64,000 bases of DNA, taken from assembly GCA_002269645.1 (NCBI GenBank), contig NIVC01000110.1, positions 248,001 through 312,000 of the forward strand, given 5' to 3'. The DNA comes from Macrostomum lignano (lineage: Eukaryota). The notes under the pieces were generated by a model, which was not told where the DNA came from, did no database searches, and saw nothing but the letters and a program-made list of their open reading frames with translations. Of this stretch, positions 19,459 to 57,711 are shown one piece after another. The stretch's first letter is position 1. Each line of letters opens with the position of its first letter. A program made the position numbers and the translations under genes.

Positions 19459-21975
<2,517 letters not shown>

Positions 21976-22265: not shown

Positions 22266-23630
22266 CAGAGGCGTCGCCACCGACGGGGGGGGGGACAGGG
22301 GGACATGCCCCCCCCCAGTAAAAGCTATGGGGTGGACATGCCAATGCTTTGTCCCCCCACACCACCTTGTGACCCGTTGTGGAAATCAATCATTTTGTTT
22401 CAGGGCGCTAAAATAGAGCACATTTGGCGCCAAAACTAGTGCCTGCAGCGCCAAAATGAATGCCTGCGGCGCCAAAATGGAGTGCCCACGGCGCCAAAAA
22501 GAGTGCTTGTGGCGCCAAAATGAGTGCTTGTGGCGCCAAAATGAATGCTTGTGGCGCCAAAATGGAGTGCCCACGGCGCCAAAAAGAGTGCTTGTGGCGC
22601 CAAAATGAGTGCTTGTGGCGCCAAAATGAATGCTTGTGGCGCCAATATAGAGTGCCTGCGGCGCCAAAATCAGTGCTTGTGGCGCCAAAACTAGTGCCTG
22701 CAGCGCTAAAATGATTGCCTGCGGCGCCAAAATGGAGTGCCCACGGCGCCAAAATGGAGTGCCCACGGCGCCAAAAAGAGTGCTTGTGGCGCCAAAATGA
22801 GTGCTTGTGGCGCCAAAATAGAGTGCCTGCGGCGCCAAAATCAGTGCTTGTGGCGCCAAAATAAGTGCTTGTGGCGCTAAAATGACTGCCTGCGGCGCCA
22901 AAATAGAGTGCCTGCCGCGCCAAAATGAGTGCCTGCGGCGCCAAAATAAGTGTCTTTTGTGGCAAAATGAGTGCCTGCGGCGCTAAAATGATTGCCTGCG
23001 GCGCCAAAATGGAGTGCTTCTGGCGCCAAAATGAGTGCTTGTGGCGCCAAAATAAATGCTTGTGGCGCCAAAATAGAGTGCCTGCGGCGCCAAAATCAGT
23101 GCTTGTGGCGCCAAAACTAGTGCCTGCAGCGCTAAAATGATTGCCTGCGGCGCCAAAATGGAGTGCTTGTGGCGCCAAAAAGAGTGCTTGTGGCGCCAAA
23201 ATGAGTGCTTGTGGCGCCAAAATCGAGTGCCTGCGGCGCCAAAATCAGTGCTTGTGGCGCCAAAATGAGTGCTTGTGGCGCCAAAATAGAGTGCCTGCCG
23301 CGCCAAAATGAGTGCCTCTGGCGCCAAAATAAGTGTCTTTTGAGGCAAAATGAGTGCCTGCGGCGCCAAAATGAGTGCCTGCGGCGCCAAAATAAGTGTC
23401 TGTGGTGGCAAAATGAGTGCCTGCGGCGCCAAAATGAGTGCCTGCGGCGCCAAAATAAGTATCTGTGGTGGCAAAATGAGTGCCTGCGGCGCCAAAATGA
23501 GTGCCTGCGGCGCCAAAATGAGTGTTGACAACACCAATTCTAAAAATAATGTGAGCACACAATTTAGTCATTAACATGCACATATAGAATTCTTGGCTTT
23601 GTCTCCCCACCAAAAAATCCATGGTGACTG
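22266..23630. mobile_element. MITE of the 17985 family with a greatly expanded 20-21-bp array (GGCGCCAAAATGAGTGCTTGT)
   Basis: Left TIR CAGAGGCGTCGCC; shared subterminal AGTAAAAGCTATGGGG; degenerate right end. Confidence 0.75.
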
Positions 23631-27400: not shown

Positions 27401-30400
27401 GGGATGCAAAGTCTTTGTGCCCAGTTGTGGGAATCAATAATATTCACGTTGCCAAAATGAGTGCTAGAAACACCGATTCTCAGAATGATGCAGGAATTTA
27501 GTCATGTAGGGGGGGTTGTCCCCTTTCCCCCACAATAGAATCTGTGGCGACGCCTCTGCGAGAATACAGAAAAAGACAGTTACGAGGGTATATTCATGAA
27601 TAAAATGTAATGTAAAAGTATACACTGAAAGATGATCAAAAGGAAAATGTCTGCAGTCAGACGGCGCTTTTGTGTTTCAAAAAAAAATTGATCAAAAGAG
27701 TTTGTGAGAGGCACGGGTCCAGCCTCTTTATGCTCAGACTTCCCATCCGGGAAAAATCATGCAAATTGAAATGTCAGTCAGCAGGGATCCAAATCCATGG
27801 AGCAGTCAGCCCTCAGCATCCTCTTGCGACCCGGTCAGTTGCCGCATCTCGCCAGCTTCATCTTCGGATCTCAGCCTCTCAACTGCATCCAGCGCCATGG
27901 GCAGCAGCTCCGTGGTTAGGTTTAGGTCGCAAAAGTACAACAGTGAAATTCACACTTTACTGACAATTGCAAGGATTAACAACTACTGGAACTTTACAAG
28001 GCTAAATTGAATTTGCAAAATAAGTTTGTTAAAATATTATTCAGATTCGAATTGCGTACGAGTTCATGACTTTACGCCAAAAATGCCTGTATGAAGTTGA
28101 AGCTGCCTCATCCTAAGCAGCCAGACTCGCAAGGAGTTTTCTAAAATCTACTGGGAGAATCAGTGACCGGCCAAGTTCAGGTGCAAAACTGTCTCGCAAG
28201 ATAATCGTGAATAATTTCTCTTAGCAGAATCCTGATGGCAGGAATCCAAAATCCAGTTTCTCTTCGAACACAAACTGAAGGACCGTGGCGGAGTCGGTCT
28301 CCTCCAGGTGCCGCCACACGAGCTCCTTCGCCTCGCCCACCGACAGCAGCTCGCTGCCTCCGCCAGGACTCTCCGGACACTCGATGCCGCTGCTCTCCTG
28401 GCCCGTCAGTCCTGCTGCAGCATCGGCCGCATCCAGCGGTGCTCCGACTTTGAGATGCGCCATCAACCTGAGGCTCTCTCTGGCTGATCTGGCGCAGTCT
28501 GGCAGCTCACCGATCAGCTGCAGCAGCTCCGACAGTCTAAGGTGACGTCAATGTCGGAGTTCGGGCTGATCTCCCCGTTCAGAGTCTCCAGGCTGCTGCC
28601 CCACCCGTCTGCGAAGCTACCGAACACAAAGAAGTCGTTGTAATCCATCGGGTGTCTCAGGATGTCCTGCAGCGCCGCTCTGAACTGCCGCGTTGGCCTG
28701 CTTGAACCCGGCGGCTCGCATGGCTTCGGACAGCCGCGAGCTGCTCCTGGCGCTGCTCCTCCGCTGACCGGACGGTCGGCGCTGCAAGCGACGGGGCGGC
28801 TGGGCAGGGCGCTATAGGGGCTGAGAAGAATGCAGAAAAAATATCTTAATCGCATCTGGTGGCGATTCCGCTCCAGCAGCAATTAAAAATTCTCTGACTG
28901 AGTCATTGCCTGGAAGCATCATAGTAAACAACGACAGCGTGAAGACCATCGGTCCTGGCTGATCCCAGCTGACACCAGCATCGATCAGAAGTTGCACCGC
29001 CTCTGTGAACCCAGCTGCTTAGGCAACTATAAACCACTCTAAGCTGTTTTTTCATTGATGTCTGCAGAAGCCTCAATCAGCATCCGAGCCATGGACAGCT
29101 ACCGACGCTCGATTGCCTGCTTGACCAAATCCTCGTTGTTATCGCTGCTCATATCGGCTGAAGCTCCAGCTCGAATCAGCTCTCCGGACGATCTCCGGAG
29201 TTTTTCATATAAACAGCCAATGCCAGGGGAGTTCGGCCATTGCAGTTCAGCAGTTCGACCCTGGCTCCAGCTCTGAGCAGCATGGCAACCAGCTCTGCTC
29301 TTCCTTTACGAACTGCAGTGTGCAGCGGCGATATTCCGCTTCACGTCCTCCTTATAATAAGACCAGACTGCGAAAAAAAAATACTTTAAACGATTATCTA
29401 ACCTTTCTGGAGATTAATCAACATTGGCTCGGGCTTTGGTGAGAACTGCGGCTGCCTCAGTGCTCAAGTTGCTTTCTGCCGCACGGTGAACAGGAGTGAA
29501 GCCTTCTTCATCCGTAATTTCGGTATTCACACCTGCGCTAATCAGCTGGCTCATGACGTCAATGTTCCCAAATTGTGCAGCCTCATGCAGTGGAGTTGAA
29601 CCACGAGGGCGGTTCGAGTTCCGCCTGTCGGGATCTGCAGCGGCACGCAGCAATATTCGAACGATTTCGACATTGCCCGTCAGAACGTCCACAACGCCAG
29701 CCCGGCCGAGCAGGACGCACAGAAACAGCGAAGTCGGCAGCGGGACGGCGGCTCCCGAGACCGGTGGCGGCTCCTGACGGCTGTCGGTGGCAGCGCAGGT
29801 CGGTCCGTCCCCGTCCGGACAGCTGGACTCGCTCCGGCTCGCAGCAGCCAGCAGCCGCGTCAGTCGCTCGCTGCTGCCGAGGACGGCACAGTGCAGCGGC
29901 GTAGAGCCGTCAGCTGCGGCCAGGTTGACGTTTGCAGAGGCCTCCACGAGCAGCCGCGCGGCCTCTGCGTTTCCTAGAAAGCTGGCGACGTGCAGGAAGG
30001 ACCTGCCGAGAAAGTCCTGCCCGCCACTCACTGAGGAGGCCGCAGTCTCCCGACTCGAGCGACTCGAGCACCGACTCGAACTGCGGCGGCTCAGGTGGGC
30101 TGAGAGGTCGCCCTGATGTGACCGGAGGCGGCTGATGGGCCGTCATGGCTGTCTGTGCTGCACTGTGTTCTGTTTCTAAGAAATAAAGTGCAAGTTAAAA
30201 GCTTCACCAGTGGCGAACTTTTGCGAAAGAACAATGATGCAACCGAGTCGGTGCCTCCTCTTTGCTGACTTTCGCAGCTGTCTCTGATTTCTCCTCAATT
30301 GCTACTCTGGGCTCCCACCTGATCGCCATCCTCGATTCATCTCAGACTCACAATCTGCCTTTTGCTTTATTGTGACTTTTTCGTGTTATAAGAAATGCAG

Positions 30401-32609: not shown

Positions 32610-33021
32610 AAAGTTGTAGTAAATCAGCTATGCTGCTTGTTTAAAGTGGTTGAAAACTACGAGAGAGCTATCAAAGCTCTGATGTCTGTATTTATATTGT
32701 AAAGCGATGCTACGTGCGCGAGAGTGATGACATAATTTAAGCATACACAATTTGCCCATAACTCAAATAGCAATAACTCAAACCTAACGTGCCAAGCTTG
32801 CGTAGATAATAATAGAGAAAGAAATAATAGGAAAGTACAAATACAAATCAATACTCGTACTGAGTGCAAGCACATACTTGTAGCTACACGACACTTCCTC
32901 CCCACAGGGAGTTAAAACTCGAAAAAAAGCATGGTGATTCAAGATTAGTTTGTGAGTCAAGTCAGTGTCACAAGGTTCAATCACTGCCCGCCTGAAACCT
33001 GGCAGGCGCGAGCCGTATGCG

Positions 33022-35371
33022 TTATGGATATCGGCGCATTGCTCCGGCCTGCTGTCCGGCGACTTCCGTGATCGGAGCAGGAGCAGGTCCAGCAAGAGCA
33101 GCTGTCGGAGCCGCTGCCGAAGTCTCCGAAGTTGAGCTGTCCGGGCCCACCTCAGACGGCGGTGTCGGTTCGGAGATTGACGGTGGTACTCGATCGGGTG
33201 CCGCGACAGCCGGTACTACTGGAGGCTGCTGACGCTGCTCTGGCAGGAGTTGGTCGATGTGGCGCTGGACGATGCCCTCGCCGACCTTGACATCGTAGTT
33301 GCGCTTGCCCGCCGCCATGACGAGGCCGGGCCGCCAGCCGGCATCCTTGCCGAAGGTCTTCACTCGCACGGTGTCACCAACTTCGAAGGACCGGGCTTGG
33401 CGGGGCGTCGAGTCGGTGCTCGCACTCTGACGGTGTCGCATCTGTTCAGTCAGGGACGGTCGCAGGAGGTCCAGCCGGGATCGCAGGCGACGTCCGAATA
33501 GCAGTTCGCTTGGTGAGGCACCGGTGCTCGAATGCGGCGTGATCCGGTAGGCAAACAGGAAGCGCTGCATGGCTTCCGCTGAGTGACCCGACTTCCTGAT
33601 GTGAGATTTCAGCGTCTGCACGAATCTTTCGGCCTGTCCGTTGGTGGCCGGGTGGTAGGGCGCTGAAGTCACGTGCCGGATCCCGTTGCTACGCATGAAG
33701 TCAGCGAACTCACGAGAGGCGAACTGGGGGCCGTTGTCGGAGACGAGAATCCTTGGCAGGCCCAAGTGGCAGAATACGTCACGGAGATGCCCGATGGTCC
33801 CGCCAGCAGACGTGTCGCTGATGAGGCGAACTTCGGGCCATTTGCTGTAGGCGTCGACAATGACTATGTACATTCGACCGTTGACTGGGCCGGCGAAGTC
33901 GACATGCAGGCGGCTCCATGGTTCGTTGGGGAACAGCCAGGGATGCACTGGAGCCTTTGCTGGGTCTGCCTGATGAGCTCTGCAGGTGTCGCACTCTCTC
34001 CCGAGCTGCTCTAGTTCCTTGTCTAGCCCAGGCCACCAGACGAAGCTCCGTGCGAGGGCCTTCATTCGGCTCGCACCGGGATGTGCGAGATGCAGCTCCC
34101 GCAGCACCGACTTGCGCAGGGTGTCCGGGATAACGACGCGAGATCCCATCAGCACACAACCGGCTTCGACTGAAAGCTCTGCTTGACGATGGGCGAAGTC
34201 CGGGAAGTCGTTAGCTGGCAGCTCCTGTCCCGACCGCAGGGCCCACAGCAGCTTTGACAGTGCCGTGTCGGCTTGAGTTGCCTTGGCAATGGCAGCAGCA
34301 GTCACTGCGACGCTCGAATCGTCCTCTAGAGTGAGCGAGTGCACCGCGGCTTCTTCGACGAAGTTGCCCTTGAGCGGCAGGCGGGAGAGGGAATCGCAGT
34401 TTCCGTGCTTCTCGGTCGGCCGGAACTCCATGGAGTACTGGTAGCCCGATAGTCGGATGGCCCACCTCTGCATTCTGGCAGCAGCGCGCGTCGGGATTTC
34501 CTTGTCCGGGCCCAGCAGTCCGAGGAGCGGCCGATGATCCGTCACGATGGTGAAGTGGCGACCGTAAAGAAATTGGTGAAAGCGCTGCACGCCGTAGATG
34601 ATTGCCAGCGCCTCCTTGTCCAGCTGGGAGTAATTGCGCTGGGCTGAAGTCAGAGACTTGCTGGCGAACGCGATCGCTTGGTCTTGGCCGTTCACGCGGT
34701 GGCTGAGCACGACGCAAATGCCGTATGCTGACGCGTCGCACTCCAGCCGAAGAGGCAAGTCCGGGTTGAAGTGCATCAGGGCACCAGAATCCAGCAACAG
34801 CTGCTTTGAAGCACGGAAGGCCTGGTCCTCGGGATCGCCCCACTTCCAAGTTGCGCCCTTGGTAAGCAGGTGGTTGAGAGGTGCTACAACCGACGCCAAG
34901 TTGGGCAGGAACTTTGCATAGTGAGTCAGCATGCCCAGGTAGGAGCGTACCTGACTCACATCGGTCGGCGCCGGCGCACGCTGCACGGCCTCGATCTTGT
35001 CAGCGAGTGGCCGCAAACCGTGACGGTCGATCCGGTGACCCAGGTAGTCGATCGAATCTCTGAAGAAGGCGCACTTGGTCACGTTGATGTGCAGACCGGC
35101 CTCTTGCAGCTTGTGCAGCACTTGCATCAGGTTGGCCTTGTGCGCAGCCAATGTAGAGCCCGTCACCAAGATGTCATCCTGGTAGACTTGAACACCGTCG
35201 AGGTGCCCCACCAGGGTGTCGAGCACGCGCTGGAAGATGGCGCTGGCCGAGCAGATGCCGAAGGGCAAGCGGTTGACTTGAAACAGTCCTCGCTGGGTGT
35301 TGACGACGAGGAACTGCTTGCTATCCTCGGAGATCGGCAGCTGCATAAACGCCTTGGCCAGGTCGAGCTTG
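33022..35371 (-). pseudogene. Element A pol, 3' part (RT YQDD, RNase H, integrase)
   Basis: KLDLAKAFMQL, YQDD, ECDAS, HHCC and DDE (DFAGP / SDNGPQF / NGQAER) motifs; severed from its 5' part by element B. Confidence 0.9.
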
Positions 35372-35989
35372 TGTTGTATCCCCCTTCCTCGCTGGCACGG
35401 CCGGGTTGGGCGACGGGTAGCGGTGTCGGGGTTCGGGTACTGGACTGCCCAGGGCTTACGAGCTCGATCGGCGACCCCGAGGCGTACGGACACTTCGGGG
35501 GGAGGTCAAGGTTGAGAAGTCGAGAGAGAGGGTAGGGGCGGCTGTGGGCGGGCGGCCACTCGACAGCCTGGTGAGTCAAGGAAGAGAGAGAGGGCTGCGG
35601 GCGGTCGGCCACTCGACAGCCTGGTGAGTCAGACTGAGGAGAGAGTGAGAGAGAGAGAGAGAGAGCAGAGGCCCAGCCAATCAGCACGGCTAGCCAAAGG
35701 GCTAAACAGCCAAGGCGAGAGAAAGAGAGCAGAGGCTCAGCCAAAGGGCTCATAGCTCCAGACTGGCTTGAGCCGGGGGGGGGGTAACAATAATCAACTA
35801 CCAAAGTCAACAACTATCAAAGTGCACTTGCACCAAGGGAGCACTGTGACACAGGTCACAACACCCTCCCCCCTAAAAAAAAAAAAACGACGCGCTTTGA
35901 CTGAATGAAAATGAAAAAAAAAATGTAATGAAATGAAACTGAATGAAAGAGACCAAGAGTGTCAGGCAGCGGCCGAGAGCGCAGGACAG

Positions 35990-36335
35990 GGGCCGAGGAT
36001 GTCGGACAGGCCGAGAACACCGGACACGGCCGAGAATGCCGGACTGTGGCCGAAAACGCCGGGCATGGCCGAGAATGCCGGACAGCGACCGAGAATGCCG
36101 GGCAGCGGCCGAGAATGCCGGGCAGCGGCCGAGAATGCCGGACAGCGACCGAGAATGCCGGGCAGCGGCCGAGAATGCCGGGCAGCGGCCGAGAATGCCG
36201 GGCAGCGGCCGAGAACGCCTGGCATGGCCGAGAATGCCGGACAGCGGCCGAGAATGCCGGGCAGCGGCCGAGAATGCCGGGCAGCGACCGAGAACGACTG
36301 GCAGCGGCCGAAAACACCGGGCATGGCCGAGAGTG
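35990..36335. repeat. GC-rich 21-bp array (GCCGGGCAGCGGCCGAGAAT) in the 3' region of element B
   Basis: Directly visible. Confidence 0.9.
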
Positions 36336-36465
36336 TTCCCCGCCCTTCCTTCGGGGCCGCTCCCAGTGCCAAACAGAGGGATCACAACGACGATCAGATG
36401 AGAGATGGGATGAAATGAAGGAGTGAAGGTCTCTTGCCCGCCCTGGCATCCTGCCCCAGAACCCC

Positions 36466-37347
36466 CTAGACCGCCACCTCCGCCGCCCGGCGCAACAACC
36501 CCAACACGCGTCCTCCGTCGATTAGTTCAAACTGAGGGATCGCAACACTCATGACGAACCGAGTGCTTCGCTTGAAGGCAGGCCGCCGCCAGACACGCCG
36601 AGCATGACCCCGACACTTGGCGCTGATGTCACGGAGAATGAACTTGACAGTCTGAGCCAAAAGCTCGGCGATTTCGCGTCGATGATCCAGCCGCTCGCTG
36701 CCGCACAATCCCACCATTTCAGTCAAAAGCCGGAACATCGCAGCTGGACTCCCCGACAACAAAGCGTGCCGAAGCTCCGACCGGATTCGAGCTCTTCGCT
36801 GCGTTGCCTCCCCGCTCCAGGTGTATTCCACCTCGGTACTCGGCTCGCTCCTCATCAGCCACGCTGGCGACTCCCGTTGGTCGATGACGAGCTCCGGTTC
36901 GTCTTCTGACATCGAAGTTTCGCCGTCGAATTCATTCAAGAGCTCTTCTTCCTCTGACTGAGTGATTTCACAGCAGCTCTGAGCAGTCTCCTCGCCGCCG
37001 CAACCACCACGCTCGCTTCCTTCCGACTCCCTGTCCTCGTCTGACTCTTCTGTTTCGTCTTCAATCGTTACGACAAACTCCTCCGGGACGCACATCCCAT
37101 CCGGCGGGACAAAATACCGGGCGCACTCGAGCGGGTTGCTAACGGCATCCTGCCCGAACCGGTCGTACAGCGCTCGTCGAAACGGACACAGCAGGACCGC
37201 ACTCGCATGCTGCAGCCTCTGGAAATTCTCCGTTCCACCGGGTCCACACTTGTCGGGGTGCCGTCGCAGGCTCTCACGGCGGTACGCACGTCGCAGCTCC
37301 TCCTCCGTCGCGAAGGGGCTGACACCAAACTCGGCGTAGAGGTCCAT
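36466..37347 (-). CDS. J-domain (DnaJ-like) accessory ORF of retrotransposon B, 293 aa
   Basis: MDLYAEFGV...EEELRRAYRRESLRRHPDK...FQRLQHASAVL...RRALYDRFG (HPD motif); acidic linker; helical C-terminus; lies between integrase and the 3' LTR on the sense strand. Confidence 0.85.
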   Translation of the reverse strand: MDLYAEFGVSPFATEEELRRAYRRESLRRHPDKCGPGGTENFQRLQHASAVLLCPFRRALYDRFGQDAVSNPLECARYFVPPDGMCVPEEFVVTIEDETEESDEDRESEGSERGGCGGEETAQSCCEITQSEEEELLNEFDGETSMSEDEPELVIDQRESPAWLMRSEPSTEVEYTWSGEATQRRARIRSELRHALLSGSPAAMFRLLTEMVGLCGSERLDHRREIAELLAQTVKFILRDISAKCRGHARRVWRRPAFKRSTRFVMSVAIPQFELIDGGRVLGLLRRAAEVAV

Positions 37348-37544
37348 GCCCGGAAAGCAGTGCCTGCAACAACCACGACTCACTTTTGAGAGCAGGGCAA
37401 TGGTTCCTTCGAGCCTCTTTGGGGCGCCGATCCTTCATCCCTGATGGCAGGGTTGGGCAGGTGGGACCTCCACTGACGGGCCTTAAGAGGGGAAATATAT
37501 ATTTTTGTTTGTGAAGCAGAGGCAATAACACGAGCCCAGTTTTC

Positions 37545-37745
37545 AATAACGCGGGTGATGACGCAGACGATGCTTCGAACCAAATGTTGATGACGCAGGT
37601 GATGACGCGGATGATGCTTCGAACCAATTATTTATGACACAGGCGATGACGCGGATGATGCTTCGAACCAATTATTTATGACGCAGGAGATGACGCGAAT
37701 GATGCTTCGACCCAATTATTTATGACGCAGGAGATGACGCGACAT
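37545..37745 (-). promoter_or_regulatory. ~44-bp tandem repeats rich in ATGACGC (CRE/ATF half-sites) upstream of the J-domain ORF
   Basis: Repeated TGACG motifs and a TATATAT at ~37495-37501; promoter function is inferred. Confidence 0.4.
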
Positions 37746-37768
37746 TGCGCACGCACTCACGTCCGCTC

Positions 37769-40700
37769 TTAATAATACACGGGCGTTCCATAACGCTGCG
37801 GAACCCTTCGATCCCTCTGGGGTCGACCTTCGATGACTTCAACTGGCGCTTCCGGCTGCGGCTGCACTCCTGGCTGCTGCACATCCATTGGTTCTCCCTC
37901 CTCTCGAACCCGCCCGGAATGTCGCCACCATCGCTCCCCATCCTCATCGTCTGATTCCTGCGAGTCCTCCCTGACGGATTCCGTCTCTTGAGCAGGACCT
38001 GGGTGGTACCTCCTTGGTGCAGGACGCCGAGGGCCACCGGTGCCGTCGACCGGGTACTTCCGGTACCGAGGCAGGAGGTTGTTAAAGTGCACCACTTTGA
38101 TCGGCTTCCGTCGACCTTCCTGTCGAATCCTATAGCGCGTCTCCGACAGCTTCTCGAGAACTACGGCAGGTCCGGTCCAGGGTGAGTGGAGCTTCGCTTT
38201 GGCACCGGCCTTCAACACGGGGTTGTAGACGAACACCTCGTCGCCAGCCACGAATTCTCGACCCTTCACCTTCCGGTCGTACCAGTCTTTCTGCACTCGT
38301 TGATATGACGTTATTCTCTCACGCACCACCCGATGGGCTTCCACGAGCGTCTCCCGCAGGTTCTGGACTTCCTCGCAGTACGGTTCGATGTCCAGTGGGC
38401 GCGCCACTCCCAAGTCAACTGGCAGAGACATCTCGCGACCATGCAGAAGGAAGAAGGGTGAGTAGCCGGTGCCGCGGTGCACACTGGAGCGATACGCCAT
38501 GAGCGCCGGGGCAACGAATTCGTCCCACCGCCTCTGATCCGGCTCCTTCACCAGGTGCGCCCGGATCACTGCAGTCAGCGTCTTATTGAAGCTTTCCACT
38601 TGGCCGTTTCCAGAGGGGTGATAGGCGGTCGTACGCGTCTTTCGGATATTCAGACTTTCGCACAGCTGGCCGATCAATTGCGACTCGAAATTGGCTCCCT
38701 GATCCGAGTGGATTGTCCCTGGGGCTCCGTAGTGACAGACCCACTCCTCGAGCATTGCCCTTGCACAGGTGCTGGCCGTCTGATCTGGCACCGGTAGTGC
38801 CACTGGCCACTTACTGAACGCGTCCTGCATCGTCAGTATGTATTTGTTGCCTCGGACGCTGGTTGGCAGTGGTCCAATCAAATCCACCATCACTCTTTCA
38901 AACACATGGCTGCTGGGGATCGGCTCCAATGGGGCCTTCCGCCGCATCCCGGGCTTGCTCCGGTTACAGTCGTCACACCTTCGCACAAACTCCTCGACCT
39001 CTCGCTTCAAGCCGGGTCTCCAGAATCGGTTCCTGACTTTCTCCAGAGTCTTTGCTACGCCGAAGTGTCCACCTCCTGGTCCAGAGTGCAGCGTCTGCAG
39101 AGCGTCGGGGATCATTTCTTCGGGAGAACAGCCCGCGGTGGGTGACGTCCCAGATCCTTGATGACGAGGGTGTTGTCCACAATTTCCAGCCGAGGCTTTT
39201 GTGCCCAGATGGCTCGGGTCGTTGGTGACGCACCCCGAGGTGGCTCTTCGTTTGCTCGGCCGGCGTGCATCGACTGGTAAACTGGAGCGATGTCGTTGTC
39301 CACAGCTTGTGCTGCTGCCAGCTCATCTCGGCTGAGCAACCCGAGCAGCGTCGTTACCCTGACCCCGGGGAGGTCATCAGTCCGGCACGACGGGCAGTTA
39401 TCCATTTCGGGATGTCGTCGCGGCGGCTTGCGTGACAGCGCGTCCGCATTCTGATGACGCGCCCCTGGCCGATGCTCCACTGCGAAGTCGAATGGCGCCA
39501 ACCTCTCCATCCACCGAGCCAACTGGCCTTCCGGCTGCCTCATACTTCGGAGCCACTGCAGACTTGCGTGGTCGGTGCGCACCCGGAACCTCCGGCCAAG
39601 TAGATAGTACCGGAACCTCTCTGCGAATGTCACCAGCGCCAGGAGCTCGATTCGTGTCGTGCAATAGTTGAATTCGGCCCCTTGCAGACGCCGACTCCCG
39701 TACGCAATAACCCGCTCTGACCCGTCTTCTTGTACCTGCGACAAGACTGCTCCGAGACCCTGTCGGGTACTTCCATCGGTATCCAAGATGAACTCACCAG
39801 CCGTGGGGTCGAAGTTCGGGTAGGCCATCACGCGGCAACCGGTCAATTCTTCTTTCAGCTTTTTGAAGGCCTCATCGTGTTCCTCTCTCCAACTGAACGG
39901 CTTGTCTTTCTTTGTCAGATCAAAAAGTGGTGCAGCGACTATCGAGAATTCTGGTATGAAGTTTCGGTAGTAACCAGCCAGACCCAGGAACGACTGAAGG
40001 TCTTTTGCATTTCTTGGAATGCTCCAGTCACGGACTTCCTTGATCTTCTCCGGGTCGACATCGATTCCGTCCTTGACACGACGTGGCCAAGGAATTTGAC
40101 CTCATCGGCCAGGAATCTGCACTTAGATGGCTTTAGCCTCAAGTTGGCTGCGCGCAGGCGCTGGAATACCGCCTCGAGATTCGTTAGATGCTCGCTGACA
40201 GTTCGGGACCAAATGATGATATCGTCGATGTAGACGAGCGCCATTTCCACAGAAGGTCGTGTAGTACCATATTCATCAACCTTGTGAATGTCGCCGGCGC
40301 ATTGGTCAATCCGAAAGGCAGCACCTTAAACGCGAATTGCCCCCGATGCGGAATGACAAAAGCAGTCTTTTCTTGATCCTCCCTTTTGACCTTAACTTGC
40401 CAATAGCCGGAGCAAAGGTCGAGCGTCGAAAATACAGCCGCACCTCCGAGCGCTTCAAGTGCGTCATCGACACGCGGGATTGCTATGGCGTCCTTGACAG
40501 TTCGTTGATTCAACTCTCTGTAGTCGACACACAGTCGCAGTTCCCCATTCTTTTTACGGACACAGACCACTGGCGAACTCCACGGCGATTGGGTCGGTTC
40601 AATCATCTTCGTTGCCAAAAGCTCGTCGATTTGTCGGTCGACTTCGCCGCGCCAATGTGGCGGTAGCCGTCGCGGAGGCTGTTTTACGGCTGTTCCGGTG

Positions 40701-41600
40701 GTCTCAATTTCATGCTGCACGATGTCCGTCGTCCCGAGGCGCGCTGTACTCTCTGCGAAAACATCTGCGTATCGATTCACCAATCTTAGGAAACTCGCTT
40801 TGTCTGCCCCCGTGAGCTGCTTGGAGCCGTGCTGGTTCAGTGCCGCCTCTGGGTCCCATGGATCGCAGCTGGGTCGTAAAACCGACGCTTGCTCTTCGAT
40901 GCTGGCTACCAGAACCTCTTGAGCCGGATCTGATGGTCGAAACCAGCCGATGACAGCTCCCTTCCGCAGCCGCAGCTCGGAGTCCGTGACATTCGCGAAG
41001 TGAACTGGTAGGGTGTTGCCCTGCTGGATGAGGCAGACGCTCCTGGCTAGCATTGGTCTCTCATCGCTCTTCAGTTTTTCGTCTGGTTCGGCGACGCCGA
41101 GCACTCCGGAATTCTGTGTCGCTGTTCTCCGAATCCTGGCTGAGACGGTCCGTTCGTGATTGGCCGGAATGATCAAGTTTTCGTTCAGGTACAACCGGCA
41201 GACGACTGGTTTGTGCTTGGTCTCTCGGATTGGCACACGTGAACCGTTCACGCGGAAAACTCCTCCGGCGAAATCGATTTGGCACCGGTGGCGGCGTAAG
41301 AAGTCGGTGCCTAGCAACAGTTCGTAGCCGACCCCTTGGACCACCGCAATTGGCGTCTGTAAAGTTTCTGATCCGAACTGTAGGGGAAGCGACGCGCATC
41401 CTAACACATTCATGGGAGTTCCGTTCGCTGAGATCAGGTGGGTTTCCGAAGGGCTGAGTTCAACTCGACCGACTTGCTCAACTGCCGCCAGGTCCTCTCG
41501 TTCACCAGCGACATGACCGAGCCCGAATCCAACAGACACGGCAACTCAATCTCGCCAATTTTTACCGACACGTAGATTGACACGGGATTAAAAGCTGTTG
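37769..41600 (-). pseudogene. Element B pol (PR, RT YIDD, RNase H, integrase) with frameshifts
   Basis: Fragments 40184-41539, 39939-40250, 39112-39846 and 37769-39115 carry successive domains; DDE motifs DLIGP / HSDQG / NGQVE. Confidence 0.9.
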
Positions 41601-41687
41601 CAGGTTGATCTCTATCTCTTGAGCAGTCCGCCGGACATCCTGCTGCACGTCGCTCCGGGGCTGCATCTTCGTCTCGGGTTGGGGCCT

Positions 41688-42669
41688 CTACTGTCTCGGC
41701 GGAACTCCCTCGCCCCTGCGGAAGTTCCCCTTGCCGTTTCCCTGTTGCTGACGGGTTGGGCAGTTAGTCGCGATGTGCCCTGGCTTGTTGCAGAAGAAGC
41801 AGCGAATTCCTCCCGTTCGTCGAGGCTTCTGATGGTCGCCTTCGTCGGAGTCGGTCGGTCGAGCTGCGGCGCTGCTATGCGGTTCCGCTCTCAGCGACTC
41901 GAGCTGAACCACTTTGCCTTGAAGCTGCCTCACCAGTTTCTTCAACTCCTCGAGCTCTTTGTCCTTTTCTTGGGAGTAGGCTCCATCCTCCCGAGGCACA
42001 GATTCCGCCGCGCCGCTCACCACGAAGACTCCTCGGTGGCCGCTGCCAGTTGCTCCAGCCGATCTCGGTCCCTTCGCCGCCTTGGACGCCGCCTCGAGCT
42101 GCCTCACCGCGCGTTGTGCTGCCACCAGACCTTCGGGCTGCTGCAGGTAGAGCTTCTCTCGCTGGAGGTCGGAGAGTCTCACCCCTTGCATGAAGCGATC
42201 CTTCGCGAGGTCGTCCTGCAGCTCGGCAGTTGCCGCCGGGTAGGCACAGCGCACCAGTTCAAGGAGAGCATCTGCGTAGGCCTCCAACGACTCGCCATCC
42301 TTCTGATCTCGGTTTTTTAGCTCGACCTTGCTGTCCTGCTCTGTCCGGTACCGGGAGAAGCGAGCCTCCAACCGGGCGGTGAATCCCTCGTAGTCCAGCG
42401 GATCCACCAGGATCGTCGGGTCCCGGCAGGTTCAGATTATCGACCGCAGCGTACGCCGTAGCGAGATCCAGCATGCTCATCAAGTGCTCGCGGCGATGTT
42501 CCTCGTCAATCTCGGCGGAGTCGCAATAAGCGTTGAAAGAGCGCAGCCAGAGTCGAAAATTCATGCTTGACGTGTACTTCACGGGCTTCGGGAGTCTCGG
42601 TGGCTGGGCTGGTCCATCCGCTCGCAGACGCTCGGCTAGCAGCCGAATCAGTTCGTCCACATTCGCCAT
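41688..42669 (-). pseudogene. Element B gag (one frameshift; CCHC knuckle CFFCNKPGHIATNC)
   Basis: ORFs 42259-42669 and 41688-42407. Confidence 0.85.
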
Positions 42670-43312
42670 GACAGCTCACAAGCAAACTGAGCAGTCCCTG
42701 TTCGGGCGCCAATGTTGTATCCCCCTTCCTCGCTGGCACGGCCGGGTTGGGCGACGGGTAGCGGTGTCGGGGTTCGGGTACTGGACTGCCCAGGGCTTAC
42801 GAGCTCGATCGGCGACCCCGAGGCGTACGGACACTTCGGGGGGAGGTCAAGGTTGAGAAGTCGAGAGAGAGGGGAGGGGCGGCTGTGGGCGGGCGGCCAC
42901 TCGACAGCCTGGTGAGTCAAGGAAGAGAGAGAGGGCTGTGGGCGGGCGGCCACTCGACAGCCTGGTGAGTCAAGGAAAAGAGAGAGGGCTGTGGGCGGGC
43001 GGCCACTCGACAGCCTGGTGAGTCAAGGAAGAGAGAGAGGGCTGCGGGCGGTCGGCCACTCGACAGCCTGGTGAGTCAGACTGAGGAGAGAGTGAGAGAG
43101 AGAGAGAGAGCAGAGGCCCAGCCAATCAGCACGGCTAGCCAAAGGGCTAAACAGCCAAGGCGAGAGAAAGAGAGCAGAGGCTCAGCCAAAGGGCTCATAG
43201 CTCCAGACTGGCTTGAGCCGGGGGGGGGGTAACAATAATCAACTACCAAAGTCAACAACTATCAAAGTGCACTTGCACCAGGGGAGCACTGTGACACAGG
43301 TCACAACACTTG

Positions 43313-44874
43313 CTTCACTTGTAGCCGCCGCCCAGCCGTGCGAACAGGTCCTCGATCCTCGGCAATGGATAGTGCTCCTGCTTGGCCACGCGGTTGAAGG
43401 TGCATTTGTAGTCTCCGCATATGCGCACCGAGCCATCCTTCTTAACGACCGGAACAATCGGCGCCGCCCAGTCGGAGGTGGTGATTGGAGTGATGACGCC
43501 CTCTGCTTCCATTAGCTGCAGCTCCTTGTCTACGCTGTCACGCAGGGCGTAAGGTACTGGCCGGGCCTTGTAGAAACGGGGCGTGGCGCTGTCCTGGACG
43601 TGCAACTTCACCTCCCCCAGTCGGTACTTGCCCAGGTTGTCCGCGAAGACGTCTGGAAACTGCTGAATTATTTCTGCAGCGATGTCGTTGGGGTTCTCCG
43701 CTACGGCGTTGACTGGAGCAGTCAAGCGGGGCCAGTCCAGTCGGATGGCCATCAGCCAGTTGCGGCCAAGGAGCCGAGCGCCGCCTTCGGACACGATGAG
43801 CAGTGGCAGCGCATAGGACTGTCCCTCATAGTTGATACTGACAGTCACCTCGCCGAGCGGGCAAAACTCCTGGTCAGTGTAGGTACGCAGTGTGGTCCTC
43901 GATGGGCGCAGCGGTAGGTGGCTGAGATGCTGGTCGTAGAAGGACTTTGGTGCCAAGCTGACAGCTGATCCGGTGTCCAGCTCAAACTGCGTCAGCGTCT
44001 TTTCCACCTGCAGAGGCACCATGATGGCCGACCGGGAGGCGCTCGATACGTGGAAGATGGGCTCCTCCTCCTGTTCGTCCTCTGTGGCGGAGTCAGACTC
44101 GTCTACCATCTTGATGGAAGCATTGGATGAACGGCAGACCTTCTTGAGATGACCGAGCCTGCCGCAGCCGTGGCACTTGGCGCTGCGATGCCTGCAGGTC
44201 TGTCGCGAATGAGAGCCTCCGCAGCTGTCGCAACGGTTAGTCTAGGGCGATGCCGCGCCGGCAGATGGTCTCATCGAGTTGGCTTGCCTGCTGCTGGGGC
44301 GTGCGGTTGCAGCTGGTTGAGCCGTGACTCGGTGTGTAGACGACGGTAGCGACATTTCGTTTGAAGATCTCTGCGAAGTCTCCAAGGAAATAGCCAGGGT
44401 GGTCAGCGCCTCGTAGGAGTTGTTCGCACTCTCCAACAACTTGGAGCGCATTGCATCGCTACTTATGCCAAATACCAGCTGATCACGAAGTCGCTCATTC
44501 AGTGTTGAGCCGAAATTGCAGTGCACCGCCGCAGACTTGAGACCTGCCAGGAAGACTGTGAACGATTCGCCTTCTTGCTGCATCCTGCGCTGAAACTTGA
44601 ATCTGGCAGCAATCTCGGAAGGAGCAGGTGAGCAGTGGTTCTTTAGGACGTCTCTAAGTTGCTCGAATGTCTTAGTGGTCAGCTTGTCCGGATGGCACAG
44701 GTCCCGAAGCAGTTTGTAGTGTTTCTCTCCAATGGCAGTGAGAAATGTAGCGCGCTTGGCCTCGGTGGACTCGACCTTGTTGCAGATGAAATACTGCTCC
44801 ATTCTCTCCGCGTAAACCTCGAAGTCGGAGTCTTGTGTGAGCTCCGGAATCCGTCCATTTGAACTCGTCGCCAT
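43313..44874 (-). pseudogene. Element A gag-protease-RT 5' part with two in-frame stops
   Basis: TAG at 44242-44 and TGA at 43315-17 in one frame; LDTGS protease motif; WAAPIV...DYK RT start. Confidence 0.88.
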
Positions 44875-45151
44875 TGTAGTAAATCAGCTATGCTGCTTGT
44901 TTAAAGTGGTTGAAAACTACGAGAGAGCTATCAAAGCTCTGATGTCTGTATTTATATTGTAAAGCGATGCTACGTGCGCGAGAGTGATGACATAATTTAA
45001 GCGTACACAATTTGCCCATAACTCAAATAGCAATAACTCAAACCTAACGTGCCAAGCTTGCGTAGATAATAATAGAGAAAGAAATAATAGGAAAGTACAA
45101 ATACAAATCAATACTCGTACTGAGTGCAAGCACATACTTGTAGCTACACAA

Positions 45152-46333: not shown

Positions 46334-47360
46334 TTAGGAGCGGCGAGAGGACGGGGGGCGGCTGACGATGTGGGCTGACGCTGCTTCCACCGTGCGCCGG
46401 CGAGCCTCGACATCAGATTCAATGTAGCGGAACACGGAGTCGCTTCGCCAGTCACCCAAGGCCATCACTTCGTGCACAGACGCGCCTGAGCTGGCGAAGA
46501 AGGTCGCCCCGCCTCTGCGCAATGAATGCCCGGAGATTGCCGTCGGGTCGAGGCCGGCCGCTGCCGCCGCTTTGAACAGCTGTTTGGAAAACTGCGGTCG
46601 ACACACCGGGACCAGTCGTTGGCTCGCTCGAAAAGCAAACAGGAGTGAGTCGGGTCCGTTTCCGGCGATATTGTTGCGCTTGAGGTGGACGAGGACCGCG
46701 CAGAACGGCAAAGCGGATGAGGAGACCCGTTCGCAGCAGGCAGTCGTGGCAGCCAGACCAGGTGCTGCCGCTCAGCAAACTGGATTGTCTTGCTGCGCCG
46801 GACCCGCAGTTCGATGCCGTTGTCGCGCAGCTGCAGGTCGTTCAGCCGCACCGCTCCGGCTGACAACTGCTGGCTCCGAGCGGCTGACGCAGAGGGGAGG
46901 CACAGATTGTCCGCACGCAGCAATCCCCAGAACCCGACCAGCAGACAGCACCAGAAGGCCGCGCTGCGGCAGGATGTCGTGTCGATGTGTGACTTGAGCT
47001 ACTTCAGCATGGCGGGTGTTAAGCCGACTTTCTGTCTCGCATGGGCGCCCCGTTGCCGTTTGACGCCTTGGAGGGCGAGTCGCACTAGGGGGTGAGCAGT
47101 CGGGTCGGCCCTCCCAGCCAGCTTGTAGAGCCACGACACCGCGTGCAGGTAGGTGGAGAAGCTGGCAAATGCGGTCAGGTGCTTGAGGTGTAGGTGGGAG
47201 ACGTAGAGTGACACCGTCGGTCCGTCGGCCTCTAGAGGGTGCACGCTGATCTCGCTGCAGAAGCGCTCCCAACACATCAGCTGGGACCGGAGGGCTCGTC
47301 TTGTATTCGGTGCCAGGGCTTGGTTGAGCAGCCGGTCTCGTTCCGTCCTCAGGGGCTCCG
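46334..47360 (-). pseudogene. Tyrosine recombinase of the Ngaro element (one stop, one frameshift)
   Basis: ALAPNTRR, GLLRADN (R), RSKT (K), GHSLRRGGAT (HxxR), GDW and FRY (catalytic Y). Confidence 0.88.
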
Positions 47361-47699
47361 CTGCAGCTGTTGAACCTGTGAGAGGAGAGATTGATAGGAA
47401 GCAGCAGACAGGGCGTGCGATGCGATGACAGATGGGTCAATGTAGATAGTTCCATAGTAACGAAATAAAAAGTTGATCAGGCCATGCTTATGGCTCAGGC
47501 GAGAAGCTGGGTCACTAAAAATTTGAAACCGGCCACGGACATGAAACACCTGGAAGTGAATGCGGTGCTTCAGCGCGAGTAAAATAGCCGTGCGCATCAG
47601 CGCCTGAACCACCGGGGGCTTGGCAGAGCCCTTGCGCAGCATCCCAGCATCAGACGAGTCGTCGGTGTAAAAAACGATGTGGCAGTTAGCTAGGTGCTC
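47349..47699 (-). pseudogene. Ngaro RNase H, C-terminal half
   Basis: EHLANCHIVFYTDD...HVRG...SDPASRL; rejoins the 60568-61842 frame when the Polinton and one TSD copy are removed. Confidence 0.8.
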
Positions 47700-48731
47700 A
47701 GTAGTAGGAAAGTGGTACCCTCTACCGCCATCGCACGGGATTGGCCGGGGCACCCGGCCAATGAGGGGAGAGGGCGCCCCGAAGACGCCCACCCCGACGC
47801 CAAACCCACCCCGACCCCCAAACCCACCCCGACCCCAAACCCACCACCGCCACGCACCCAATCCCGACCCCAAACCCGCACCCACCCCCGACCCCAAACC
47901 AGGCCCCCTCCTGTCCTACACCCCTCCTGTCCTGCACCCCGTGCATCCCATACCAAGACCCCCTCCTGTCCTGCACCCCGTGCATCCCATACCAAGACCC
48001 CCTCCTGTCCTGCACCCCGTGCATCCCATACCAAGACCCCCTCCTGTCCTGCACCCCATGCATCCCATACTAAGACCCCCTCCTGTCCTACACCCCTCCT
48101 GTCCTGCACCCCGTGCATCCCATACCAAGACCCCCTCCTGTCCTGCACCCCATGCATCCCATACCAAGGCCCCCTCCTATCCTACGCCTTGCCCCATCCC
48201 ATGTAGCAAGGTCCTTCTATCCTGTACCCTAACCAAAACCAATTCCCCCCTCCTAATTCCTAAACCCAAGTCTTATTACCTGTCTCACTTACCGCCTTTA
48301 AAGCTAGCCAAGGCAAAACCCTCATTCCATGCTTTGGTTGTACTGTATCTTGCTGTGGCGGGTACAGCGTGAGGTCGTTAGACCTAGAACGCTACTTCTT
48401 GGCGGCCAGAGGGCCGCAAGAAGGTCCCGCCACCTCCTGTTACGTTGATGGCTGAGACTTTGTTAAGGCCCGAGTTCCTGCGAAAGGGCTGCTGTGTGGG
48501 GGTTGGATTTGGGGTTCGGATTAGTTATTTCTATGGAACAGGAGCTGGTTTCTAAATGGCTGAGTGGTCCCCGGAAGGGCTCCTGATTTGCCGAGAGTTC
48601 CTGTGAGAGGGCTGTTGTGTGGGGTTGGATTCGGGGTTCGGATTGGTTATTGCTATGGAGCGGGAGCTGGTGTTACTTACCAACTCTCGTCGTATATAAT
48701 CTCGCACACAGCCGGAAGGAAAGCTCACAGT
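47700..48731 (+). repeat. Polinton left TIR (hairpin, C-rich tract, 33-bp array, TATA at 48693)
   Basis: Reverse complement of 59440-60567 apart from array copy number. Confidence 0.95.
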
Positions 48732-48788
48732 TTTTCGGTCCTAGAGTTTTATTTAAAGACTTTAAATTTTGCGTTCTAAATTTTAAAC

Positions 48789-50879
48789 ATGACATTTTGT
48801 GAATACTGTAGTCAGACAGTGCCCGGTGACATATTAGCTCACTACTCAGTGTGCCCAATTATTCCAACTTTATTTTCTGATGAACCATGTCAATTCCAAT
48901 TAATTAAAGAAGCATTTTTCGGCCAGACGCGACTCTATCGGCGGATCGTTGCCGGCGATCCCATCGACGCCCTGGAGTCATCCATTGCTTCAGGCACAGA
49001 ACTCCTGGCAGATCTGCGTTCGAAACCAGGCTTTGCCATCAAGGTCCAAATCCGACTCGGTGTGCCAATGCAGCGTTGGGCTGGTGGCAGCTTTGTGGCG
49101 CAGAGCACAGCCTGGTTTGCCAGTGAAACGGCCGAAGTCCTTTCAGATGAGGAAGAAGATTTCTTTGTTCGGGAAATCCCACTTATTTTGGAACGACTGA
49201 GCAAATACCTTCGCAATGGCAGTGGGTGGACAATTGACTCCATTCGCCAGCTCGCCGATGTGTTCGAGGCGTTTCGTCGAATGAGCCTCACTTCGGATGG
49301 GCTAGACCCAGTGCATTTTATAACGACGCCGGGAATGTCTTTCGAAGCAGCGCTTAAGTACTGTAAATTGGAGCTTGAATTGCTGCAATGTCCAGAGTTG
49401 TACAGCTTATTTGAAGAGGGTACTCGTGGTGGTATGACATTTGTCAACACACACAGAGCCAAAGCCAACCATCCCGGACTCGGTGAGCTGTATGATTCGC
49501 ATCAACCTCAAACCTATCTTATCCCCATCGACGCCAACAACCTCTACGGACACGCCTTGTCCACCAAACTGCCATGGTGTGGGTTCCAAGTGCTTGACAC
49601 TGTACCACCAAACAATGAGGTTGAGAGATGGATCAGGGATGAGTTTGACCCAGAGGGCGATGTTGGATACCTGCTAAAGGTTGATCTCCATTACCCCCCA
49701 GAGTTGCACGACAAGACATCAGACTTGCCCCTTGCTCCAGAGAAGGCGCAGCCTCAATGGGAATGGATGCCGCCGCATCAGCAGCAGCTCTGGGAACTAC
49801 TTTCTAGACAGAGGCTCTCTTGCGGAGGATATAATTCAGGAGGCGACAAGTTGATGTTGACATGCTTTGATAAAACCAGCTATGTTGTACACGCCAGAAT
49901 CCTACAGTTTTATCTCCGTCTAGGTCTTAGGCTGCGTACTGTCCACTGCATTGTTCGCTTTCAGCAAGCAGCAGTACTCGAGCCTTACATTCGACGTAAT
50001 AGTGAGCGGCGTGCACAAGCCAAAAATGAGTTTGAAAAGGATTATAATAAGCTGCTGAACAACTCTCTGTTTGGAAAGACCATGGAGAACGTGCGCAAAC
50101 GCGTCGACTACCGCCTGGTCAACTCAGCAGAGAAGTTGGAGAAGCTCGCAGCTAAACCTAACTTTGAAGATCAAGAGATATTTAATGAGAATCTTGTTCT
50201 CGTCCACATGCGCAAGACAACAGTCGAGCTCAACAAACCGGTGTACATCGGACAGTGTGTCCTTGATAACAGCAAACTCATTATGTACAGCTTGTGGTAT
50301 GATAAGCTGCTTCCGCTGGTCAATCAGTTACCGTGTGCGAGCCTCAGTCTGCTCGGCGGTGACACTGACTCTTTCTTCCTCCACTTAAAGAATGCTGATG
50401 GCGAGCGATGGTTTCTGCCTAAACTGTGCGAAATGGAGCTGCTGGACACCTCTAATTATCCCAAGGACCATTGCTTGTATACTTGCGAACGCAAAGCAAG
50501 GTTAGGCTGTGTAAAGGATGAGAGCGATGGTACAGCGAACTTTTATGAGTGGATCCTGTTGCGTCCCAAGCTCTATTCCTTTGCTGCAGTAAACTCCTCC
50601 AAGGACAAGCGTCGTGCTAAGGGTGTGCAGCGATCTGTAGTGCAAAATGAAATCTGCCACGCCGACTACTGCGAAACTTTGATGAAAATGGAAGAAAAGT
50701 CCTGGCTGACGCGTCGTATTGCCAGTGAGCATCATGAGTTGTTCACCACTGCCACCTTGAAACGCGCACTCTCGTTTTGGGAGGACAAGAGGGCATGGCT
50801 CGCGGCAAATCAGAGCCTACCCTACGGCCACTGGCGTCTAGAGGCTGAGAAGCGAAAGCGACCCTGCCCGTTTGACTAG
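48789..50879 (+). CDS. Protein-primed family B DNA polymerase, internally shortened
   Basis: DANNLYG (motif A), KLLNNSLFGK (motif B), GDTDS (motif C); GSGW...LADVFEAFR juxtaposed, so the exonuclease region is absent. Confidence 0.9.
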   Translation: MTFCEYCSQTVPGDILAHYSVCPIIPTLFSDEPCQFQLIKEAFFGQTRLYRRIVAGDPIDALESSIASGTELLADLRSKPGFAIKVQIRLGVPMQRWAGGSFVAQSTAWFASETAEVLSDEEEDFFVREIPLILERLSKYLRNGSGWTIDSIRQLADVFEAFRRMSLTSDGLDPVHFITTPGMSFEAALKYCKLELELLQCPELYSLFEEGTRGGMTFVNTHRAKANHPGLGELYDSHQPQTYLIPIDANNLYGHALSTKLPWCGFQVLDTVPPNNEVERWIRDEFDPEGDVGYLLKVDLHYPPELHDKTSDLPLAPEKAQPQWEWMPPHQQQLWELLSRQRLSCGGYNSGGDKLMLTCFDKTSYVVHARILQFYLRLGLRLRTVHCIVRFQQAAVLEPYIRRNSERRAQAKNEFEKDYNKLLNNSLFGKTMENVRKRVDYRLVNSAEKLEKLAAKPNFEDQEIFNENLVLVHMRKTTVELNKPVYIGQCVLDNSKLIMYSLWYDKLLPLVNQLPCASLSLLGGDTDSFFLHLKNADGERWFLPKLCEMELLDTSNYPKDHCLYTCERKARLGCVKDESDGTANFYEWILLRPKLYSFAAVNSSKDKRRAKGVQRSVVQNEICHADYCETLMKMEEKSWLTRRIASEHHELFTTATLKRALSFWEDKRAWLAANQSLPYGHWRLEAEKRKRPCPFD

Positions 50880-51703
50880 ATTTTTCTGAATACGAAACTT
50901 GTACCTACCTTGTTTATTGATAATAACGATGATGTTTTGTTTTATTCTGCTGTCTAGATAATAAAAATACCATTGATACCATTTTTTAATATAATCAGAA
51001 TGTTTTGGCCGATAATACTGCCAATGTGTGCGTTGCATTTTTGTACGTTTCATTTGCTGATTTTTAATTACTAACGAGGAATTATGGCACTTTTTTAATA
51101 AACATGAAATGTATATATGTTAGTTTGAGTTGAGGCTGGTAAAAAGAAAATTTTTTTTTATTTATTTTCATAAAGTAAAAAGGGTTTAAAACTGTCGATA
51201 AAATAATATATAAAACAAACTAAATTCAAATCGAAATACTAGTTTTTGTGTAAAATTAAATCGTGTAAAACAATGTAAAATTTCATGCACTTAAAAAAGG
51301 TTAAAAATCTCCATTGAAATACATGTGTTTTATGCAAAAGTATGCAAGTTTTCGTCCAGTGATTAAAAGTATGCAATACGGCGTGAATTTTTCGACAAAA
51401 TGCGTCTACTTTCATGCACAGGTTCGGGTACAAATCCCTATTGAAATACATGTATTTTGTGCACAAGTATGCAAGTTTTCGTGCACAGTGTTAAAAAGTA
51501 TGCAAAGTGTTGAGGTTTTTTGTGCACACATTCGGGTAAAAATTCCCATCGAAATGTATGTATTTTGTGCAAACATGCATGCTTTTTCGTGCACAACAGA
51601 GGCTAGAAACGCTAAATCCGCAGAAACTGGTGGGGTGGGCAGTTTTTTTTTTCAAGCCGGGTGTTTGGCATAAGAAAATGATAGGTACTAGAAATTCGGT
51701 AAA

Positions 51704-57696: not shown

Positions 57697-57711
57697 CTCG
57701 ATTGTCTAAAG

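Follow-up and report, generated by a model that had tools for sequence, protein, structure and literature searches.

Ty3/Gypsy long terminal repeat (LTR) retrotransposons with open reading frames (ORFs) beyond gag and pol are known (PMC5408684, PMC9289625, PMC11963269, PMC7264820, PMC6431247, PMC13524379), and include errantiviruses with env, bdelloid elements with their ORF3s, plant Retand elements with aORFs and an orchid Gypsy element with AlkB. J-proteins encoded by parasites are known as well, from phages, polyomaviruses and Plasmodium, in a 2026 review (PMC13254874) in whose accessible text the word "transposon" occurs 0 times; SV40 T antigen (PMC13254874) and phage Rki (PMC3486835) are described there and in excerpts of the latter paper as hijacking Hsp70. 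Here I report that the two meet in element B, a Gypsy element in a 64,000-nucleotide stretch of the Macrostomum lignano genome (assembly GCA_002269645.1, contig NIVC01000110.1, positions 248,001 to 312,000; hereafter the window, in whose own coordinates all positions are given). Its third ORF, ORF3, encodes a class C J-domain protein and is very likely a selected accessory gene. What is new is the combination, as the extra ORF and the parasite-encoded class C J-protein are each known but their pairing was not found described.

No description of a retrotransposon-encoded J-protein was found among the matches listed, a scope outside which lie most subscription journals, Repbase Reports and the earlier M. 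lignano LTR classification; an earlier note on this DNA, made from the letters, likewise knew of no J-domain gene as a Gypsy accessory. An earlier mention of ORF3 in a repeat library is possible. The passages of PMC6431247 and PMC13524379 on Gypsy extra ORFs do not contain "DnaJ". Like the elements listed above, B carries a sense ORF between integrase and the 3' LTR, with tandem arrays beside it and probable spliced expression. Unlike them, it encodes there a soluble J-protein, a J-domain not being among the accessory domains described for them in the passages cited.

ORF3 runs from an ATG at 37347 to a stop at 36466 on the minus strand, the same strand as gag and pol, and translation bears out the extent, the sense orientation and the length of 293 amino acids claimed by the earlier note. 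A frame of at least 290 codons arose in only 2 of 20,000 base shuffles of the region, and GC content by codon position (0.66/0.48/0.68) is like that of the integrase (0.65/0.46/0.67). The protein and its parts are the following.

36466..37347, minus strand: ORF3, class C J-domain protein of 293 amino acids (ORF, Pfam DnaJ, codon-position GC)
37162..37344, minus strand: J-domain, residues 2–62, with the His-Pro-Asp (HPD) motif at 30–32 and the end LxCP[FY]RR (Pfam)
36796..37149, minus strand: acidic linker, residues 67–184, poorly conserved, with no glycine/phenylalanine (G/F)-rich segment (charge, conservation)
36469..36813, minus strand: basic C-terminal domain (C-domain), residues ~179–293, predicted to have five helices and with no clear known fold (AlphaFold2, conservation)

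The HPD-containing J-domain and the acidic linker had both been read from the sequence in the earlier note, and both hold: Pfam DnaJ matches residues 2–62 with E 1.2e-12 (48.2 bits, against a cut-off of 27.8) and with the HPD intact, while the linker has a net charge of −30, against +12 for the C-domain. Pfam found no domain besides DnaJ in ORF3, nor any zinc finger or beta-sandwich domain of class A and B J-proteins in ORF3 or its relatives. The G/F region of those classes was not found either, as the G+F content of the family is 10–17%, against 33–50% in three ordinary DnaJs. ORF3 is thus a class C J-protein, a J-domain joined to unrelated domains without a G/F region, a class in which the extra domain is described as picking the client or the place (PMC13254874, in part). 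In the PDB, the family profile matches J-domains of the DNAJB1 type best (E 5e-21), which makes engagement of the host's cytosolic/nuclear Hsc70/Hsp70 by the ORF3 J-domain likely. An errantivirus-like env shares with ORF3 the sense-strand position after pol, but the membrane anchor and fusogen ectodomain are missing; no membrane segment was found in the family, the maximum 19-residue hydropathy being 0.94–1.56 in four members, against 2.47 in the env-like protein P0140.

An exhaustive search with the C-terminal 144 residues of ORF3 against 1.84 billion representative proteins found four relatives (E 4e-10 to 6e-4), all Logan or JGI records, with 37, 35, 29 and 32% identity to ORF3. The full layout of J-domain, acidic linker and C-domain is present in three of these, and the fourth, without an N-terminal J-domain, looks partial. 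Since the query held no J-domain, its presence in three of the four matches (Pfam DnaJ scores of the relatives 63–69 bits) is independent support. The J-domain of ORF3 is identical to those of the three full-length relatives at 33/66, 32/66 and 32/66 positions, and the C-domain at 41/106, 32/106 and 35/105. The resulting four-member family shares the same residue at 23 of 66 positions of the J-domain and at 21 of 109 of the C-domain, but at only 3 of 63 in the linker core (98–160); the linker is always acidic (−13 to −52 in the relatives), and the C-domain is basic in all four (+8 to +13). The end signature LxCP[FY]RR occurs in all four family J-domains and in none of 111 ordinary DnaJ-type proteins fetched, and the four form one split (support 0.911) among 115 J-domains. 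This tree cannot name the donor of the J-domain, because the comparison J-domains are mostly bacterial. The proposal of an accessory J-domain gene in the env slot is upheld, the gene being retained beyond the B copy and conserved in deeply diverged relatives. Two Cys residues are invariant in P0002, P0004, P0006 and P0007, one at position 54, at the end of the J-domain, and one at 125 in the otherwise variable linker.

Other searches were less productive. A word-index homolog search with ORF3 alone returned one ordinary DnaJ (1 of 2969 candidates), and with the family profile only P0007 and 111 ordinary J-proteins among 8000 scored. A scan of GTDB genomes gave 26 pattern matches, 0 of them confirmed, and the ESM Atlas gave no usable C-domain match, P0007 matching generic DnaJ clusters at 0.82–0.83.

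Element B itself is a complete, young Ty3/Gypsy LTR retrotransposon. Its LTRs have TGTTG...CAACA ends and differ at 2 of 489 aligned bases, the element is flanked by a 4-bp target duplication, CAAG, and both a primer-binding site and a polypurine tract are present.

42713..43308, minus strand: 5' LTR, 596 nt, TATA-less, with a CCAAT-like motif at 43126, an initiator (Inr)-like TCAGT at 43084 and a 53-bp repeat in 3.7 copies (putative promoter)
42694..42711, minus strand: primer-binding site
41688..42669, minus strand: gag with a CCHC knuckle and one frame break near 42410 (Pfam, alignment)
41690..41742, minus strand: candidate programmed −1 frameshift in the gag-pol overlap, GGGAAAC at 41742 with a stem-loop of −18.2 kcal/mol
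37769..41763, minus strand: pol, in the order protease, reverse transcriptase (RT), RNase H, integrase, with frame breaks near 41465, 40245, 40070 and 39160
37549..37741, minus strand: 44-bp tandem array in 4.4 copies between pol and ORF3, with TGCGTCA and CCAAT-like motifs
37364..37369, minus strand: candidate splice acceptor, 16 nt before the ORF3 ATG (motif; the gene model P0118 enters ORF3 here)
35965..36332, minus strand: 20-bp tandem array in 18.7 copies in the 3' untranslated region
35864..35874, minus strand: polypurine tract
35372..35863, minus strand: 3' LTR, 492 nt, two 53-bp units shorter than the 5' LTR

The protease was assigned by position and by a Pfam match in the near-identical model P0118, and the gag-pol junction is probably a programmed −1 shift. 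I take the primer-binding site to be of the tRNA-Lys type; this and the 4-bp duplication are presumably hints, and only hints, of the Gmr1/Osvaldo cluster. The slot between integrase and the polypurine tract/3' LTR, which the earlier note had given for ORF3, is right as to position, except that ORF3 does not lie directly against the tract: a gap of ~590 nt, holding the 20-bp array, separates the two.

A second M. lignano insertion shows that ORF3 is element-borne in this species. The gene model P0118 (UniRef A0A1I8H0P8) is the top match of the B integrase, with stretches identical to the window at 229/229 and 80/80 residues, and joins gag, protease, integrase and an ORF3 identical to that of B at 256 of 271 positions; its flanks are different, and the acyl-CoA dehydrogenase exons downstream of it are absent from the window. 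ORF3 is thus not confined to a single copy, the outcome against which the earlier note had set this check beforehand. At greater distance, the ORF3 relative P0007 and the Pol protein P0124 are both JGI records, each on a contig of 7008 bp, and from these equal sizes they are probably on one contig, so that a J gene would again accompany a Pol of B's clade. An exact size match would arise by chance with a probability of ~0.002 if only the two JGI members of the clade are considered, and of ~0.005 if any of 57 short contigs could supply it, and 7 kb has room for the 1254-residue Pol, the 264-residue ORF3 and gag.

The clade was defined from a Pol set in which 120 of 278 proteins found were listed (906–2585 amino acids only) and 110 passed the coverage filters, the addition of B and of element A, a second Gypsy element described below, giving 112 taxa. 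B falls in a six-member clade with three M. lignano Pols and two JGI Pols, P0124 among them (FastTree support 0.985 for RNase H and 0.995 for integrase, 112 taxa; IQ-TREE 100/100, 34 taxa). B and P0124 are 47% identical in integrase and 64% in RT, and a passenger under no selection would be expected to lose its reading frame over such a distance. One Pol of the clade, P0130, is labelled dUTPase by its source. In P0140, a more distant Pol relative, pol runs on in frame into an env-like region with a membrane anchor, so across the wider Pol tree the cargo of this slot varies.

The fold prediction that the earlier note had suggested for the C-domain agrees with a helical nature: from five sequences, AlphaFold2 gave a five-helix bundle for residues ~179–292, with a pLDDT (predicted local distance difference test) of 83.5 and a pTM (predicted template-modelling score) of 0.75. 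A fold of the whole protein from the single ORF3 sequence (pLDDT 48) was too poor for use. No fold match at E<=0.001 was found for the C-domain in the PDB or BFVD, which does not prove the fold new. The best structural match among 48,161 chains has a Z of 8.4; it is the cobalamin-binding cap bundle of the MetH/CarH type, of which there were several among the top matches, with a root-mean-square deviation of 2.4 over 81 residues, a range common for helical bundles. Profiles lent no support to homology with this cap, with a profile-profile probability of 0.9%, E 0.063, and 3 of 60 block shuffles scoring as high. Among PDB sequences the C-domain profile picked out designed helical proteins, with a best E of 0.0026, and below them matches ascribable to chance, and no PHROG matched. 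The invariant residues outside the core are Arg189, Arg193, Gln232, Thr233, Arg239, Asp240, Arg250, Arg251 and Trp253. For a basic, Arg- and Trp-bearing domain on an acidic tether nucleic-acid binding fits best, and its conservation would point more to a nucleic-acid-containing client than to a capsid protein. A predicted complex of the C-domain with the Gag capsid region scored 0.00 (alignments not used, partner fold uncertain) and has no weight either way. The C-domain would be a new targeting domain, and one that is predicted to fold confidently.

The interpretation that I favour, at a little better than even, is that a Gypsy clade has long carried ORF3 as an accessory gene, whose class C J-protein tethers Hsp70 to the element's own nucleoprotein complex. 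Its parts are not equally firm, as judged from the sequences: ORF3 likely works through Hsp70, and the chance that its client is the element's own nucleoprotein is somewhat short of even. The HPD J-domain would stimulate ATP hydrolysis by host cytosolic/nuclear Hsc70/Hsp70, locking the chaperone on a nearby client, and the basic five-helix domain would choose that client, most likely through nucleic-acid binding, with the acidic linker as a flexible tether and possibly a nucleic-acid mimic. Hsp70 would in this way be delivered to the element's RNA- or DNA-protein complex and strip or remodel proteins there, the outcome being relief from silencing or nuclear retention/export, or ribonucleoprotein maturation. 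An extended form, in which the whole flatworm-associated Gypsy clade encodes an Hsp70 co-chaperone whose new-fold basic domain binds tandem-repeat RNA or DNA while Hsp70 strips silencing or retention complexes, is unlikely. If ORF3 has been kept across the ~50% Pol divergence, it adds retroelements to the parasites that encode J-proteins. The long-standing link between Hsp70 and transposon activation could then be probed starting from the element, and M. lignano as host offers transgenesis and published heat-shock RNA-seq (as described in parts of PMC12801592). The anti-silencing reading, if true, would amount to an ATP-driven, chaperone-based system, the retroelement counterpart of T antigen.

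Several known systems resemble parts of this scheme. Polyomavirus T antigen has a similar layout: it too is encoded by a mobile element and begins with an HPD J-domain, after which come an acidic stretch and a targeting part. Unlike it, ORF3 has no LxCxE and no helicase or origin-binding domain (Pfam), and the end of its J-domain is of the cellular type. LxCxE, which I take to be the Rb motif of T antigen, is absent after the J-domain in three of the four family members, that of B included, with one unconserved match in P0007. Phage RB43 Rki (057w) is likewise a stand-alone, parasite-encoded class C J-protein that uses host Hsp70, but comes from a DNA phage of bacteria. Cellular class C proteins such as auxilin share the J-domain and an unrelated client-selecting domain, whereas for the ORF3 C-domain no convincing counterpart was found in Pfam, among PDB sequences or in fold searches. 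The pestivirus Jiv (DNAJC14) insertions are alike in that a virus has captured part of a host DNAJ gene; the earlier note was mistaken in citing them as a J-domain precedent, as Jiv90 is not the J-domain. VANC of the VANDAL transposons and CERV of C. elegans Cer1 are element-encoded accessory proteins acting on their own DNA or RNA: according to excerpts of the two papers, the binding sites of VANC are tandem repeats in the element that encodes it (PMC5735166), and CERV, an accessory protein made from spliced RNA, acts on the RNA of its element (PMC10309623). The excerpts mention no J-domain for either, and the likeness to ORF3 is a functional analogy only. By this analogy, the tandem arrays flanking ORF3 would be candidate sites for its C-domain.

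ORF3 protein would be made, like env, from a spliced subgenomic mRNA. This is probably the route, and the splice motifs are suggestive: besides the acceptor listed above there are candidate donors at 42800 and 42679, and the leader is free of ATG before gag. An internal promoter is a possible alternative, with a TATA-like motif at 37501 and an Inr-like TCAGT at 37476 after the 44-bp array, a route hampered by an out-of-frame ATG at 37438.

Four other explanations were weighed. ORF3 could sabotage the host as Rki does, tying up or redirecting Hsp70, with a heat-shock response or a collapse of the PIWI-interacting RNA (piRNA)/Argonaute pathway that de-represses the element in trans. There are precedents, to judge from portions of the papers concerned: Rki acts in this way on DnaK and sigma32 (PMC3486835), Hsp70 displaces piRNA factors in Drosophila and transposons are de-repressed (10.1101/423210), and other M. 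lignano LTR families exploit heat shock through heat-shock elements (HSEs; PMC12801592). However, no canonical or one-mismatch HSE was found in the LTRs or spacers of B, nor were four B motifs found in the supplement of PMC12801592 on its six HSE families, so far as available. B is not one of these heat-induced families, because it has no HSE, and a feed-forward loop through HSF on B itself is for the same reason unlikely. Simple titration would also not need a conserved basic domain, and I consider host sabotage improbable. Less probable again is an auxilin-like capsid chaperone, the idea of the earlier note, in which the C-domain would dock on the Gag lattice and Hsp70 would power the assembly or uncoating of particles. 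Auxilin is a textbook class C precedent (PMC13254874, in part), ORF3 sits in a structural-gene slot and P0140 has its env-like membrane ORF there; but most Pol relatives in the wider tree have no known J gene, which suggests that Gypsy capsids do not generally need one, and Arg makes up most of the invariant positions that do not belong to the hydrophobic core.

If a poorly known host DNAJ gene had lately been captured as an intronless copy and carried along neutrally, the relatives being host genes of other small invertebrates, the cellular type of the J-domain would be explained, and no element context is seen for three of the four relatives; intactness in a young copy is moreover expected by chance. 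Yet no named host protein with the C-domain was found in the protein searches, although M. lignano proteins were in the collection, nor any Pfam family, so that the host-gene fragment that the earlier note had set against its own proposal did not come to light; this absence is only moderately informative, because those searches missed known members. The likeness of ORF3 to integrase in codon-position GC and the 7008-bp contig match, which involves a Pol of B's own clade, also speak against capture, and I rate it as very unlikely. The slightest chance is given to an ORF3 that is selected, but whose J-domain is a docking or decoy module not activating Hsp70. The Asp before the last J helix, present in 84 of 95 matched stored J-domains, is indeed Cys in the family, and the B copy departs further in helices I and III; against this, all four members retain the HPD, as well as the basic helix that precedes it, across ~50% J-domain divergence.

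The favoured interpretation, a J-protein tethering Hsp70 to the element's own nucleoprotein, has several points against it. It is built on sequence and predicted structure, and Hsp70 stimulation, client binding and expression are all predictions. The link between P0007 and P0124 consists of the equal 7008-bp size, and one coincidental, unrelated pair occurs among the 57 contigs (0.23 expected); the other relatives, P0004, P0005 and P0006, sit on contigs of 1.1–2.2 kb, and an element context is seen for none of them. For the three further M. lignano families in the clade the searches brought up no ORF3, though they were leaky (one missed P0004 and P0006, another P0118). The second-copy model P0118 leaves the ORF3 frame for seven residues near 140–149. 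The splice motifs are not above chance, donor-like motifs occurring 13 times in 7937 nt, and basic charge alone does not show nucleic-acid binding. Finally, the intactness of ORF3 in the B copy is uninformative. There are five frame breaks in ~4.9 kb of gag/pol, the programmed-type shift apart, and at this rate an 882-nt ORF has a chance of P=0.41 of being unbroken. The earlier note was correct in observing that ORF3 is intact while gag and pol are frameshifted, but because of this probability the contrast is no evidence of selection.

The breaks in B lie outside homopolymer runs, and element A has 0 frameshifts in 3897 coding nt, where ~4 would be expected at B's rate (P 0.019). Uniform assembly errors are thus a doubtful cause, and B may be a genuinely defective copy.

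Element A, into which B is inserted, is also young, with 1 mismatch in 276 between its LTRs.

32614..45149, minus strand: element A, Gypsy, with LTRs at 32614–32889 and 44874–45149 and an RT gene interrupted by B

Its gag-pol keeps to a single frame; in the piece translated, codon 206 is followed by an in-frame stop, the only one, which may be read through. Elsewhere in the window, a Polinton/Maverick at 47700–60567 has inverted ends of ~1 kb starting AGTAGT, a 6-bp target duplication, and ORFs for polB, integrase, an ATPase-like and a protease-like protein. It also contains a TATA-binding-protein-like ORF (57670–58311, plus strand; Pfam TBP, E 7e-19) and a PC4-like ORF (58791–59471, minus strand; E 6e-5, just under the cut-off). 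This Polinton splits a DIRS-like tyrosine-recombinase retroelement (46334–47915 and 59965–61863), so that RT lies to one side and an ORF of the phage integrase family to the other, and a 146-bp repeat is present at both 46111 and 61837. Two copies of a composite repeat block, 91–100% identical, lie at 19917–22659 and 61980–64000, and an ankyrin-repeat coding stretch at 29414–30142, on the minus strand, belongs to a host gene or is repeat-borne.
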